From NCBI RefSeq assembly GCF_056712565.1, contig NZ_JBWXXM010000002.1: a stretch of DNA of 64,000 nt; one strand, 5' to 3'. This stretch comes from a plasmid. Shown one piece after another: positions 53,566 through 57,332 of the stretch; the first letter of the stretch is position 1; each line of letters begins with the position of its first letter. The position numbers and the translations under genes were made by a program. The notes beneath the pieces are model-generated. The model was not told the origin of the DNA, did not search any database, and worked only from the letters and a program-made list of their open reading frames with translations.

Positions 53566-54231
53566 CTAACGACTACCACTTTTAAGTATGTATTGAGCCA
53601 GTTTTATATTCAGGCACACCATATTGCACTCTAGCTCTTTCATCATTCTTGAAGAACTCTTAATTAAGTATTCTTCAAGTGGGCCAGCATATGCCCCTGA
53701 TGTCACGATCGTTAGTTGCGTAAGAGGATGAGTCAAACTCTCAATGCCCTTCAGGATGTCATTCTGGACAGCAGCAATATAAACAGGCGAAGCCGCAATC
53801 AAATATTCATCATTCGGGCTGGACTGCATTAACTGGCTTATAGTTGCGCAACGGTTATGCTTACCTAGTGATTTTGTGATGGCTTTCCACCAGAGATCAT
53901 GCCTGAATGGTACTTGATGAAATGTCGCCTCGTAAGAGGGCACCCGATCTCGACTATTTAAAAACCCCATCCCGGCAGAGATTATCCACAACTCCAGATT
54001 TCTGGTTGAGTTTAAAATTTCCTTTGCCGTAGACCAGTGATTACCTGAATACAAGGACAATGCCGGTACCGCCTGATTACTTCTGGCGTCGTCTACAATG
54101 TTACTCCAGGCATATGCTGCGTCGTCCGGGGTTTGTTTTGGATCTATGTCCAATGTCGGCCAGACGTGGCCCTGATGATTCTTGCCCTTTGTACAGGAAG
54201 TGATTAAGTGTACTGAGCGTTCAGAGAACAT
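53566..54231 (-). CDS. hypothetical protein (221 aa)
   Basis: ORF track; AT-rich accessory DNA. Confidence 0.4.
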   Translation of the reverse strand: MFSERSVHLITSCTKGKNHQGHVWPTLDIDPKQTPDDAAYAWSNIVDDARSNQAVPALSLYSGNHWSTAKEILNSTRNLELWIISAGMGFLNSRDRVPSYEATFHQVPFRHDLWWKAITKSLGKHNRCATISQLMQSSPNDEYLIAASPVYIAAVQNDILKGIESLTHPLTQLTIVTSGAYAGPLEEYLIKSSSRMMKELECNMVCLNIKLAQYILKSGSR

Positions 54232-54288
54232 TATCTTCCTTACATACCCATAGAACAGCTTTCTAAGAACGGTGGGCTCGCCTGAAAA

Positions 54289-54669
54289 TTACAAATCAGC
54301 CCCTTTCACGGCATCATTTTGATTCTTCGCGTCTGCCCCCAGTAAGATGACCGGTTTTCTGCATGACAGTGTTATTCCTAACAAACGCAACACAAAACCA
54401 CGCCAGCCAGAGCAAATTTTTTCATTTGCTGCGTAAAGCCTATTGTTTTCTCTTTTAAGCTTCGCCCACTCGTTACAGAGGGTAACATCATCAAGCGCTG
54501 TTATATGCTTCGCCTCACCTTCGACGATAACGGTATGGATACCGTATGCTGTAAATCTCATACTATTTTCCAGAACCCAGTTGCGGTATTCGTCGAGTCC
54601 ACCTTCGGAACCGGTAGCTCTGCGCCACATTTCAATTTGCTTGTGTGATGGGTCAAGTGTACTTGTCAT
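54289..54669 (-). CDS. hypothetical protein (126 aa)
   Basis: ORF track. Confidence 0.4.
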   Translation of the reverse strand: MTSTLDPSHKQIEMWRRATGSEGGLDEYRNWVLENSMRFTAYGIHTVIVEGEAKHITALDDVTLCNEWAKLKRENNRLYAANEKICSGWRGFVLRLLGITLSCRKPVILLGADAKNQNDAVKGADL

Positions 54670-54938
54670 TGAAGCCTCGTCTCAGCGATAACGCTTGAAA
54701 TAGCCCGCTTTGGTCATCATGAAATTAGCCATCTGACTGGCGATTTGATTGTATCTTACTCATAGTGCCCTACCTATAGGTTAAAAAGGGGCATTTTCGC
54801 TTTATAGCGTGTTCAGCAGCATCAATCCTCCCAAGAAAGGCTGGCTTATTAAGCCGGTCCATCATTTTCTGTATATCTCTCATCAATTTTTATATCCGCC
54901 CTGGAGTGCACCGTTCAAGCACACCGATTAGGCAGATA

Positions 54939-54965
54939 GTCACTAGTTAACTCTTTACTAGTGAC
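54939..54965 (+). promoter_or_regulatory. perfect inverted repeat (9-bp arms), candidate operator
   Basis: GTCACTAGT taactcttt ACTAGTGAC in AT-rich divergent intergenic region. Confidence 0.4.
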
Positions 54966-55205
54966 TAAATTCCATTGATATACGTGACAACGTCACGTCA
55001 TGAAAGCTTATAAATGCCTATTTTTCATACAATGGGATTTAATTAGGAGTAAATCCCATAGGCTTACATAAGGATGACAATTAAAAGCGTTAAATATCAA
55101 CCAGATAGAATGATTACCCCCAATTAATGGGCTCATCACATTATTTCACTGGCTGGGGTTATTGCTGGCATATCTGAAAGTGCTAATATGTTAGTCATTA
55201 GTAAT

Positions 55206-55222
55206 TAGTAAAGCCTTTACTA
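55206..55222 (+). promoter_or_regulatory. palindrome sharing CTTTACTA half-site with 54939..54965, candidate operator
   Basis: TAGTAAAG c CTTTACTA about 90 nt upstream of ATG 55312. Confidence 0.35.
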
Positions 55223-55311
55223 AACGCGTTTCTACGTAAATTCTATAGGTTTTATAGGGTCCTACCTTTGCTCAAATCAAAATGTTCTGACATACCAAAA
55301 TGGAGTGTAAA

Positions 55312-56130
55312 ATGACTCAAAACCAGGGTTCTGAGCCAGTACCGGCGAGCCGGACAGGGCAGCTCATCAGCGCCCGGGATATGGCCATGCAGAAATTCGA
55401 AGAAGGGATGCGGTTAATCTCGGAAGCGTCGGAACTGTGCGGTCTCTCTCTCTTCACCAGCAGAATTATGCAGCCCAACGCATTTGGTCTTCCGTCGTCA
55501 CTGGATCGCACCATCGAGGAGGGGCGTAAGGAAATTGACCGTAAAACGTGGAAAAGGCTCTTTGAAGAAACAGGTATGGACCGGTACTGGAACCATAAGC
55601 AAAAAGAAGCCTTTAACGAATCCCTTCGTACGGATCCGCCCGTCGCTTCCCTGGAGATTGTTAAGGGAACATTACAGCATGCACTGGCTAACAGACGAGA
55701 CACCCTTGCAGAAGGTTTCGTTGATGTTCTCAACAAGCTTGACCGAAGTTTCAAAAGCAATGCCAGGCAATATACAATGCCAAAAAAGCTTGTTCTTCGG
55801 GGGATTTTTCCTAGTGTGAACGTGCTGAGGTACAACGGTTTCTCGCAGGACAATCACTTTTGTTTACGCGACTTTGAGAATATTGTATGCATCTGTTCTG
55901 ATACTCCAACACCTGCAACCGGCGGTGGGCTGAGTATGGTCGACAGGCTGACGGCCATGAGAAATACAGAATTCACAGGCGAGGTCAGTGATGAGAATGG
56001 CTGGCGGTGTCGCCTGTTTGAGAATGGAAACGTTCATATTTGCATCGACAGTATCTCGCTTCTGAATGCTCTGAACGATCTTATCAGCATATATTTTGCA
56101 AACCAGCTTCCGGCCGCAGGAAAAAAATGA
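55312..56130 (+). CDS. hypothetical protein (272 aa)
   Basis: ATG 55312 with GGAG RBS; stop overlaps next gene start. Confidence 0.5.
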   Translation: MTQNQGSEPVPASRTGQLISARDMAMQKFEEGMRLISEASELCGLSLFTSRIMQPNAFGLPSSLDRTIEEGRKEIDRKTWKRLFEETGMDRYWNHKQKEAFNESLRTDPPVASLEIVKGTLQHALANRRDTLAEGFVDVLNKLDRSFKSNARQYTMPKKLVLRGIFPSVNVLRYNGFSQDNHFCLRDFENIVCICSDTPTPATGGGLSMVDRLTAMRNTEFTGEVSDENGWRCRLFENGNVHICIDSISLLNALNDLISIYFANQLPAAGKK

Positions 56131-57332
56131 TGATTGAAAATGATAAAGAAAAAAGCCTGAACGATGCTACCCCGCCAGAGGTGCAGAATGACATCCGCAG
56201 CGAATCCACTGAAAAATCAAAGGAAATGGGTCGTTCAAGGTACTCATCTATCGCGATGATCGATTACTTCAATGCAATCGAACGTCTGTGCAAAGAGAAA
56301 GAAATTAACCCGGAAAATATCGATCTGAGCTTCAAAGTTCACTGGCTCAGAAACGCTGTTGGCGGCTCGTTTGCAAGGTCACAGGAGATGTTCGCGGAGT
56401 ACCAGAAGTATGTTAAAGAGGTTCCTGAAGAGGCCCGTTACCTGGATATACCCGATGAGGTAAAGGTTGCACTCGGCGATATTATCTCGTACATCACCTG
56501 GCACTACCGTAGAAGCTATACCGCAATACAGAATGATAGTGTTAAAAAAGCTGAAGCACGTAGCATGCAGCTGGAGGAGGAGGTAACGCAGCTGTTACAG
56601 CGGCTTGAGCAAAGCGCTACCGATATGGATGAGCTGAAACTTGAGAATCAGGCACTACAGGGTCGATTAGAGATCCGGGACAGTACCGTCAAGGAGTTAG
56701 AAACAAGGCTGAATGTTGCCGAAGCAGAACTCGAAACCTGCCATCACCAGTTAGATAGCACACGGCATGAATTGAGCCTCGCACAGCAGTCAAATGACTC
56801 ACTCTCCCAGCAACTGGCTGAACGTAAAACAGAGATCGCTGGTCACCTTGAATATCAAAAAAAGCTGAACGAAGAGATCAACACGCAGCGTTCTGATAAC
56901 GCCGGTCTTTCCAGACAATGCGACCAGTTAAGTCAGACTGTGTCAGATACAAAGGCAGAGAGGGACAGGTTTGAACAGGAATTGATTGCTGCACAGAACC
57001 TTTGTACTGAGCTGAAAAGTGCACTGTCCGGGAAAGAGGGTGACCTGGTGGCGGTGAATGCCGAGCTTACTGAACTCCATAAACTAAACGAGTCGCTGAG
57101 CGCCGACCTGAATAAAGTAACTTTGGTCAGCCAGGGCTATGAAGCGGAAGTGGCTGAACAAAGCAATGAACTCAAAACGCTCCAGGCCAAAGTAATGAAG
57201 CTGGAAGCTACCCTGGAGGCGGAGAAAACAATCTCAGAATCCCTAAAAGGCACCATTGATACATTAACTGGTGCAATGGCAGGGGGAGGTACTGGAAAGT
57301 CAAAACAGCCGCGTAGCAGAAAAACATCATGA
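56127..57332 (+). CDS. KfrA-like coiled-coil DNA-binding protein
   Basis: N-terminal domain then ~250 aa heptad-rich Gln/Glu/Leu region; start MMIENDKEK. Confidence 0.45.
   Translation: MMIENDKEKSLNDATPPEVQNDIRSESTEKSKEMGRSRYSSIAMIDYFNAIERLCKEKEINPENIDLSFKVHWLRNAVGGSFARSQEMFAEYQKYVKEVPEEARYLDIPDEVKVALGDIISYITWHYRRSYTAIQNDSVKKAEARSMQLEEEVTQLLQRLEQSATDMDELKLENQALQGRLEIRDSTVKELETRLNVAEAELETCHHQLDSTRHELSLAQQSNDSLSQQLAERKTEIAGHLEYQKKLNEEINTQRSDNAGLSRQCDQLSQTVSDTKAERDRFEQELIAAQNLCTELKSALSGKEGDLVAVNAELTELHKLNESLSADLNKVTLVSQGYEAEVAEQSNELKTLQAKVMKLEATLEAEKTISESLKGTIDTLTGAMAGGGTGKSKQPRSRKTS
57114..57124 (+). repeat. AAAGTAACTTT motif copy 8 (inside KfrA-like gene)
   Basis: exact 11-mer. Confidence 0.6.

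Follow-up and report, generated by a model that had tools for sequence, protein, structure and literature searches.

The 64,000-nucleotide stretch of plasmid DNA analysed here (RefSeq assembly GCF_056712565.1, contig NZ_JBWXXM010000002.1; hereafter the window) carries, at positions 53566-57332, a segment with four open reading frames (ORFs), two on the minus strand and two on the plus strand. The segment is flanked by the insertion sequences (IS) IS1, ending at 53537, and ISEc62, an IS21-like element starting at 57594. We focused on the plus-strand pair, an operon encoding a 272-aa protein of the DUF4942 family and a 401-aa coiled-coil protein, and on the intergenic region preceding it. A first-pass annotation, made from the sequence alone, had listed the four ORFs, the two flanking elements and two palindromes in the intergenic region, all of which are real. 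Its description of the module as AT-rich holds for the intergenic region only (guanine-cytosine content of 0.34-0.38, vs 0.43-0.51 in the genes and 0.52-0.58 in the IS flanks). The stretch between IS1 and ISEc62 is 100% identical to that of ~480 large conjugative plasmids typed IncHI2A/MOBH/MPF_F and found in E. coli, Salmonella, Enterobacter and other hosts. The segment belongs to the ordinary backbone of IncHI2 resistance plasmids; its features are collected in Table 1.

Table 1. Genes and conserved elements of the segment between IS1 and ISEc62 (window coordinates)
Feature	Position	Strand	Basis and remarks
221-aa DUF6884/DpdC-family protein, WP_000490638.1	53566..54231	-	PADLOC, Pfam, motifs; full length
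126-aa small conserved plasmid protein, WP_001426317.1	54289..54669	-	tblastn homologues
Operator-like site 1 (block A), TAGTCAC-TAGTTAA-CTC-TTTACTA-GTGACTA	54937..54967		conserved block in 8 loci
Block B, ACGTGAC-AAC-GTCACGT	54982..55000		invariant core GTGAC-N3-GTCAC at 54984-54996
Block C, palindrome or hairpin ATGGGATTTA-N8-TAAATCCCAT	55032..55059		position conserved across loci
Block D, predicted extended -10 element TGCTAATAT of the DUF4942/coiled-coil operon	55181..55189	+	conservation
Operator-like site 2 (block E), TAGTCAT-TAGTAAT-TAGTAAAG-C-CTTTACTAA	55192..55223		conservation, uniqueness
Block F, GCTAyGTGAATTCTA-like stretch, here TTCTACGTAAATTCTA	55230..55245	+	conserved; in predicted 5' leader
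272-aa DUF4942 protein, WP_000193209.1	55312..56130	+	Pfam; first gene of operon
401-aa KfrA/TlpA-like protein, WP_001572381.1	56127..57332	+	second gene of operon

The four genes had been grouped into a single module. The segment instead divides into three independent units: the 221-aa DUF6884/DpdC gene, the 126-aa gene, and the control region (about 54937-55245) with the DUF4942/coiled-coil operon. It is composite because the left neighbour of the operon varies between lineages (DUF6884, an FRG-domain protein, other genes or IS110), which leaves the minus-strand genes outside the conserved unit. In the syntenic IncHI1 locus the gene order is H-NS, a 90-aa gene, DUF6884, the intergenic region, DUF4942, the coiled-coil gene, a small ORF, DUF1173, a small ORF, Dcm and SNase. 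The 126-aa gene is absent there, and elsewhere DUF6884 is swapped for other genes, so that neither minus-strand gene is a conserved partner of the operon. On the other side, DUF1173, a small ORF and Dcm lie downstream of the operon in most loci, convergent with it and followed by SNase. An H-NS-family gene is found within a few kb in several of the loci.

The 272-aa and ~400-aa genes had been described as an operon, with which their layout agrees. In the window the two genes overlap by 4 nt (ATGA) and are, judging from this layout, translationally coupled. In each of the 8 diverged loci compared, a DUF4942 gene directly precedes the coiled-coil gene (from a 4-nt overlap to a 5-nt gap); the proteins of these loci are 29-71% identical to those of the window (49-71% for DUF4942 vs 29-53% for the coiled-coil protein). 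The first gene is preceded by a GGAG Shine-Dalgarno sequence (55302-55305), six bases before its ATG; an alternative ATG at 55300 would extend the protein to 276 aa. No published study of the DUF4942/coiled-coil locus was found in the literature.

The control region proved richer in symmetry than the two palindromes first reported. Site 1 consists of two direct and two inverted TAGTnAn heptads and contains the palindrome TAGTCACTAGT-N9-ACTAGTGACTA with 11-bp arms. Site 2 includes a perfect 19-bp palindrome with 9-bp arms at 55205-55223, TTAGTAAAG-C-CTTTACTAA. Both sites are made of TAGTnAn heptads (4-6 per array) and are identical at 19 of 24 nt (54937-54960 vs 55199-55222). The two palindromes had been described as sharing a half-site; their likeness stands, but the octamer CTTTACTA spans the spacer and an arm in site 1 and is not strictly a half-site of that palindrome. 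Two further palindromes, blocks B and C, lie between the two sites and had escaped the first-pass annotation. Counting inverted repeats with arms of at least 9 bp and spacers of at most 10 bp, we observed 3 in the 642-bp intergenic region vs 0.03 expected, and none of 2000 first-order Markov simulations yielded 3.

These elements are also rare outside the control region. In the 64-kb window, the site 2 pattern had 1 match at up to 3 mismatches (0.02 expected), GTGAC-N3-GTCAC occurred once (0.09 expected), and clusters of at least 3 TAGTnAn heptads within 60 bp were confined to sites 1 and 2. On a complete 264-kb IncHI2 plasmid, GTGAC-N3-GTCAC again occurred once and heptad clusters only at sites 1 and 2; the site 2 core matched only sites 2 and 1 at up to 2 mismatches, site 1 being a 2-mismatch match. 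Since the sites are unique on the 264-kb plasmid, they would serve the DUF4942/coiled-coil locus alone, and their uniqueness points to local rather than global control. A second copy of GTGAC-N3-GTCAC was seen in another plasmid, pELE1-215 (locus L009, 1279-1291), ~850 bp from a parG gene. Folded as single-stranded DNA, positions 54930-55260 gave z-scores of -5.3 (plus strand) and -4.4 (minus strand); the fold is a series of local palindromes and lacks any long-range stem. Frpo-type promoters, which occur in plasmid leading regions, consist of a long imperfect hairpin of about 300 nt that provides a promoter in single-stranded DNA. We considered and rejected such a promoter at 54930-55260, where only local hairpins form.

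We aligned the upstream regions of the 8 loci, and blocks A to F stood out as conserved. Site 2 starts 3 bp after the extended -10 box and should therefore cover the transcription start. The GTGAC-N3-GTCAC core is present once in every homologous intergenic region fetched. The distance between sites 1 and 2 is about 260 bp in the window and about 240-350 bp in other lineages. Block C appears in the alignment as a ATGGGATTTAAT...ATTAAATCCCAT palindrome, with two compensated changes in locus L012 (CTATGCGATATAA...TTATATCGCATAG) and uncompensated changes in L014 and L015; because the latter are uncompensated, a protein site would account for block C no less well than a structure. The -10 pattern TGnTAnAnT is kept in 6 of the 8 loci, L012 lacking the TG and L016 reading TTACAT, and it is from this conservation that TGCTAATAT is predicted to be the promoter of the operon. 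The conserved position and core sequence of the palindromes upstream of the operon in 8 diverged loci support the view that they behave like operators. In the lineage of L012 and L017, the operator core has become TCATAAC-AAA-GTTATGA and the predicted recognition helix of the coiled-coil protein is rewritten as well (GGRIHNATTAF vs GGSFxRAQEMF). This co-change supports the coiled-coil protein as the candidate binder, with the reservation that it is a single event and that DUF4942 also diverges there.

The 401-aa protein has a helical, helix-turn-helix (HTH)-like N-terminal domain (about residues 35-135), followed by a continuous coiled coil (about 136-385); it ends in a basic tail, ...KSKQPRSRKTS. 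Proline is absent from residues 136-385, which display a 3.5-residue hydrophobic periodicity (power of 4.8 vs at most 0.7 at other periods), and the protein matches the SMC, crescentin and FPP coiled-coil models. The model of its N-terminal domain is confident and helical, with HTH and winged-HTH DNA binders as best structural neighbours. This domain defines a very small family: of 1.8 billion cluster representatives, 12 were retrieved at E<1e-10, of which 7 are full-length proteins (384-415 aa) and the others fragments; a word-indexed homologue search with the domain returned fragments only. Every member that could be traced to a locus has a DUF4942 gene in its context.

The first-pass annotation had likened this protein to plasmid KfrA, a comparison that stands for the architecture (HTH-like N-terminal domain, GGSF motif, coiled coil and basic tail) and stays below threshold for the KfrA_N sequence family. 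The window protein did not match Pfam KfrA_N (PF11740) at E<=1. One of 8 relatives did, at a sub-threshold E of 0.0012, weaker than usual curated matches. Aligned by hhalign with R751 KfrA alone, it gave E=0.34, the stretch LR-AVGGSF-RSQEMFAEYQ facing VRKQLGSGSFTTISEAMNEWR; against an alignment of 9 KfrA N-terminal sequences the match was collinear over 105-108 columns and weak (P=0.0034 in global and 0.035 in local mode). We thus describe the protein as KfrA/TlpA-like in architecture, its membership of the KfrA_N sequence family being marginal. KfrA of the IncP-1 plasmids R751 and RK2 belongs to the same Pfam KfrA_N family as TlpA of Salmonella pSLT. Both KfrA and TlpA repress their own synthesis through an inverted repeat at their own promoter, and KfrA is reported to assist segregation. 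With KfrA our protein has in common a (L/V)R..(V/L)G.GSF....E.(F/M)..(Y/W) motif within a helical N-terminal domain of DNA-binding type, a coiled coil of ~250 residues, a short basic C-terminal tail (...GGRKKT in R751, ...SRKTS here), an inverted repeat at its own promoter and a location in the plasmid backbone. It differs by a longer N-terminal domain, with ~8 residues inserted ahead of the motif and one more helical segment, and by a control region with four palindromic elements over about 300 bp. The gene organisation is also distinct: R751 kfrA precedes kfrB and kfrC beside korB/incC, whereas the 401-aa gene comes second and last in its operon, behind DUF4942, and is not beside a par or central control region.

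The 272-aa protein, previously listed as unknown, belongs to DUF4942 (PF13708; E=1.9e-26, 93.3 bits vs a cut-off of 25, residues 73-261) and matches phrog_38825 with E=2.5e-100. In its AlphaFold2 model the N-terminal half is confident and helical and the C-terminal half poor; a structural neighbour of the model was not found, and a profile search with the DUF4942 alignment recovered nothing beyond the close family. The same Pfam domain occurs in N6-methyltransferase-like proteins, among them phrog_6263. A second DUF4942 protein of this type, 563 aa long, is encoded on the same kind of plasmid (pHS13-1-IncHI2, NZ_CP026492.1, 176006-177697; L023, 26006-27697), close to a Dam methylase gene; its DUF4942 domain (residues 96-290) precedes an N6-adenine-methyltransferase-like domain. 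Unlike this type, the 272-aa protein has no methyltransferase domain, and possesses instead a confident helical N-terminal half and a coiled-coil partner.

From these observations we propose, tentatively and as a reading whose chances we put slightly under even, that the coiled-coil protein is a local repressor and a KfrA-like maintenance scaffold with DUF4942 as its partner. The extended -10 promoter TGCTAATAT would drive both genes of the operon. The coiled-coil protein would dimerise via its coiled coil and, through the N-terminal domain of the dimer, bind the TAGTAAAG-N-CTTTACTA palindrome and the flanking TAGTnAn heptads of site 2. Binding at this place, just 3' of the -10 box, would shut off its own operon. 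Site 1, about 260 bp upstream, could act as an auxiliary operator through cooperative binding or looping. By analogy with KfrA, from which the idea of a maintenance role is drawn, the coiled-coil protein would probably also be a DNA-anchored scaffold for plasmid maintenance, DUF4942 being its obligate partner.

Several observations weigh against this proposal. A generic promoter scan, which requires a -35 box, did not call the TGCTAATAT -10 box. In the IncHI1 plasmid p109/9 (L008, 8530-8545) DUF4942 carries a CAG-to-TAG nonsense codon, with an undamaged coiled-coil gene downstream; other IncHI1 copies (L011) are intact. A further point concerns a Tn7-like element with pco/sil (in some cases rcnRA or mcr-9) which, in R478-type IncHI2 plasmids, has its insertion point at about 55258-55265, past block F and ahead of the DUF4942 Shine-Dalgarno sequence. 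It parts the promoter and operators from an intact operon in over half of the IncHI2 plasmids: the coiled-coil gene is present in about 1150 plasmids and the locus is contiguous in only about 480. Plasmid survival therefore does not require the native control region. The junctions of the Tn7-like element lie at L004 8720-8760 and L005 6940-7010, with ends TGTCCGAAGACAATAAAGTTGTA... and ...TACAACTTTAATGTCTCTACACA and host GGTCCTAC on both sides; as a speculation, the conserved control region might double as an attachment site for it. Finally, DUF4942 co-varies with the sites equally well and could itself be the binder. Block B, with its invariant GTGAC-N3-GTCAC, and block C surpass site 2 in conservation and would need a different, more conserved factor, possibly DUF4942 or a host factor.

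The latter points lead to an alternative that we consider unlikely, in which the palindromes are operators of another factor and the coiled-coil protein is not a sequence-specific binder. The factor could be DUF4942, a nucleoid-associated or MarR/SlyA-type regulator of the plasmid or the host, or H-NS together with a counter-silencer. The linkage of DUF4942 to the sites is as strict as that of the coiled-coil protein, and DUF4942 is the more conserved of the two, which fits the invariant GTGAC-N3-GTCAC, and its position N-terminal to an N6-methyltransferase-like domain in the 563-aa paralogue is compatible with a DNA-targeting module. The AT-richness of the region and the nearby H-NS-family genes agree with an H-NS-based control, and the half-site TTAGTAA bears a loose likeness to the SlyA consensus, TTAGCAAGCTAA. 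However, site 2 drifts between lineages, as would a site whose binder is encoded on the plasmid and co-evolves with it, rather than one bound by a host factor, and the predicted recognition helix of the coiled-coil protein is changed in the lineage with the changed operator.

We assign a similarly low chance to the operon having an establishment or anti-defence function, with a burst of expression on entry followed by self-repression (zygotic induction), in concert with the orphan DNA-modification and nuclease genes nearby. Establishment genes typically have a tightly auto-repressed promoter. The conserved neighbours include DUF1173, an orphan Dcm, SNase, HNH nucleases, a UvrD/GajB-like helicase and a DpdC-like gene, and homologues of the 126-aa protein stand beside yafA/yafB on IncI/K plasmids. 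The defence or anti-defence role raised by the first-pass annotation receives no more than indirect support, from the place of the DpdC family in the Dpd restriction-modification system and from a neighbourhood rich in orphan DNA-modification genes. Against an establishment function, PADLOC returned no match for DUF4942 and matched the coiled-coil protein only in the coiled-coil regions of JetC and LmuB. The locus is not obviously in a leading region, being ~80 kb from the MobH relaxase and mobI on pHS13-1-IncHI2 (~45 kb of which are resistance-gene insertions). Moreover, local palindromes take the place of an Frpo-like hairpin, and in most IncHI2 plasmids the operon is parted from its promoter.

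A partition role, also suggested at first, is improbable. The control region would then be a centromere-like site and the operon an accessory partition system. ParR, ParG and omega-type proteins bind centromere or operator arrays of short repeats which the TAGTnAn heptad arrays resemble, both arrays are unique on the 264-kb plasmid, and the reported help of KfrA in segregation would agree; yet no gene for a ParA-, ParM- or TubZ-type nucleoside triphosphatase lies between the IS elements, the ParA/ParB and ParM modules of the plasmid are about 95-100 kb away, each array has only 4-6 heptads, and the Tn7-like insertion parts sites from genes without loss of the plasmid lineage. Just as improbable, in our view, is an IncHI-specific nucleoprotein switch, in which a TlpA-like repressor would sense temperature through its coiled coil or assemble with DUF4942 on the four-palindrome control region, although, if true, it would link the pair to the well-known thermosensitivity of IncHI plasmids.

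IncHI2 and IncHI1 plasmids play a major part in carrying mcr-1, mcr-9, extended-spectrum β-lactamase genes and typhoid multidrug resistance, and a good part of their backbone is annotated as 'hypothetical'. The locus described here is now a defined unit, with a strictly conserved gene pair, a predicted promoter, exact candidate operators and a candidate binder. Should the pair aid stable inheritance or establishment, it would offer a target in the backbone that over 1100 sequenced plasmids share; should the locus prove to be a KfrA-type accessory gene with ordinary autoregulation, the practical benefit would be an improved annotation.

The two minus-strand genes had both been listed as unknown. 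Profile searches of the kind the first-pass annotation had recommended assigned the 221-aa protein to DUF6884/DpdC, as they assigned the 272-aa protein to DUF4942, and left the 126-aa protein without a family. Searches of NCBIfam and of PDB sequences gave nothing specific for any of the four proteins, and the sole Rfam match was a chance-level hammerhead (22 bits vs a gathering threshold of 52) within the DUF4942 coding region. The 221-aa protein matches the PADLOC DpdC model PDLC02818 with E=4.1e-59 over profile positions 3-233 of 319 and Pfam DUF6884 with E=5e-7 (30.4 bits vs a cut-off of 30). It contains the family motifs CxxxK (C13-K17) and (L/I)SAxxG, here ISAGMG, which Pfam curators relate to a YaaA-like, probably base-flipping, DNA-binding fold (PMC11701544). 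DpdC converts preQ0-DNA into ADG-DNA, DpdA/DpdB having first to place preQ0 in the DNA (PMC10164549). Truncation by IS1 was considered and ruled out: the identical 666-bp coding sequence is present in plasmids without the IS1 insertion, such as pD90-1, where two small genes and then an H-NS-family gene come after it.

The 221-aa protein therefore resembles DpdC of the Dpd 7-deazaguanine modification and restriction system of Salmonella Montevideo (PMC10164549) by its match to the DpdC model and by its motifs, and differs in lacking the C-terminal third of the profile, adjacent DpdA/DpdB or dpdD-K genes, and in adjoining an H-NS-family gene in the IncHI backbone. DpdA/DpdB were not adjacent in IncHI2 or IncHI1, PADLOC found no Dpd match among nine nearby or suspect plasmid proteins, and no TGT-like gene, the type to which DpdA belongs, appears in the annotation of the complete 264-kb IncHI2 plasmid (annotation only; the full proteome was not scanned). 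We predict an orphan DpdC/DUF6884-type enzyme acting on DNA bases, which would add to the stand-alone DNA-modification enzymes carried in IncHI backbones. In pELE1-215 (L009, 5888-6268), NCBI gives a fragment of the IncHI1 DUF6884 homologue the name 'tgtA5 cluster protein 2', which is DpdC nomenclature; many genes of this record are fragmented by frameshifts.

The 126-aa protein had no match in Pfam, NCBIfam, PADLOC or PDB. Its core (about residues 37-118) is 45-56% identical to proteins of 84-89 aa that are encoded after yafA/yafB on IncI/K plasmids and near hha on Klebsiella IncF plasmids, and 3420 plasmid records were matched by tblastn. To judge from these homologues, it is a small pan-plasmid gene and a unit separate from the operon. 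IncHI1 plasmids lack the left part of the intergenic region of IncHI2 (about 54708-54925), within which lie a 38-aa ORF at 54770-54886 (minus strand) and a GC-rich terminator-like hairpin (GGCTGGCTTATTAAGCCGGTC) at 54839-54859; this part may have come in along with the 126-aa gene. A derivation of this part, or of the N-terminal extension of the 126-aa protein, from a yafA/yafB or hha region was rejected (best tblastn E=0.27). Family support was not found for the small intergenic ORFs (20-43 aa), and no convincing leftward promoter for the minus-strand genes could be defined.

Downstream of the operon, a block of DUF1173, a 55-aa ORF and Dcm was present beside it in most IncHI-type loci fetched (59747-61066, minus strand, and beyond in the window; L001, 13075-16072), followed by a divergent SNase gene and a gene for a protein of ~310 aa. 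The Dcm-type C5 methyltransferase was identified by PADLOC as an orphan methyltransferase (oMTase, 3e-206), and DUF1173 is a predicted PD-(D/E)XK nuclease family (PMC3045609). The block could be a restriction-modification-like or anti-restriction unit. A conserved 67-aa ORF (MSYMLSLSEQ...), which matched no family and whose IncHI1 homologue is annotated, lies between the coiled-coil gene and DUF1173. It is intact at L001 12859-13062 (minus strand), whereas in the window (57396-57605, minus strand) its first two codons have been lost to the ISEc62 insertion at 57593/57594.

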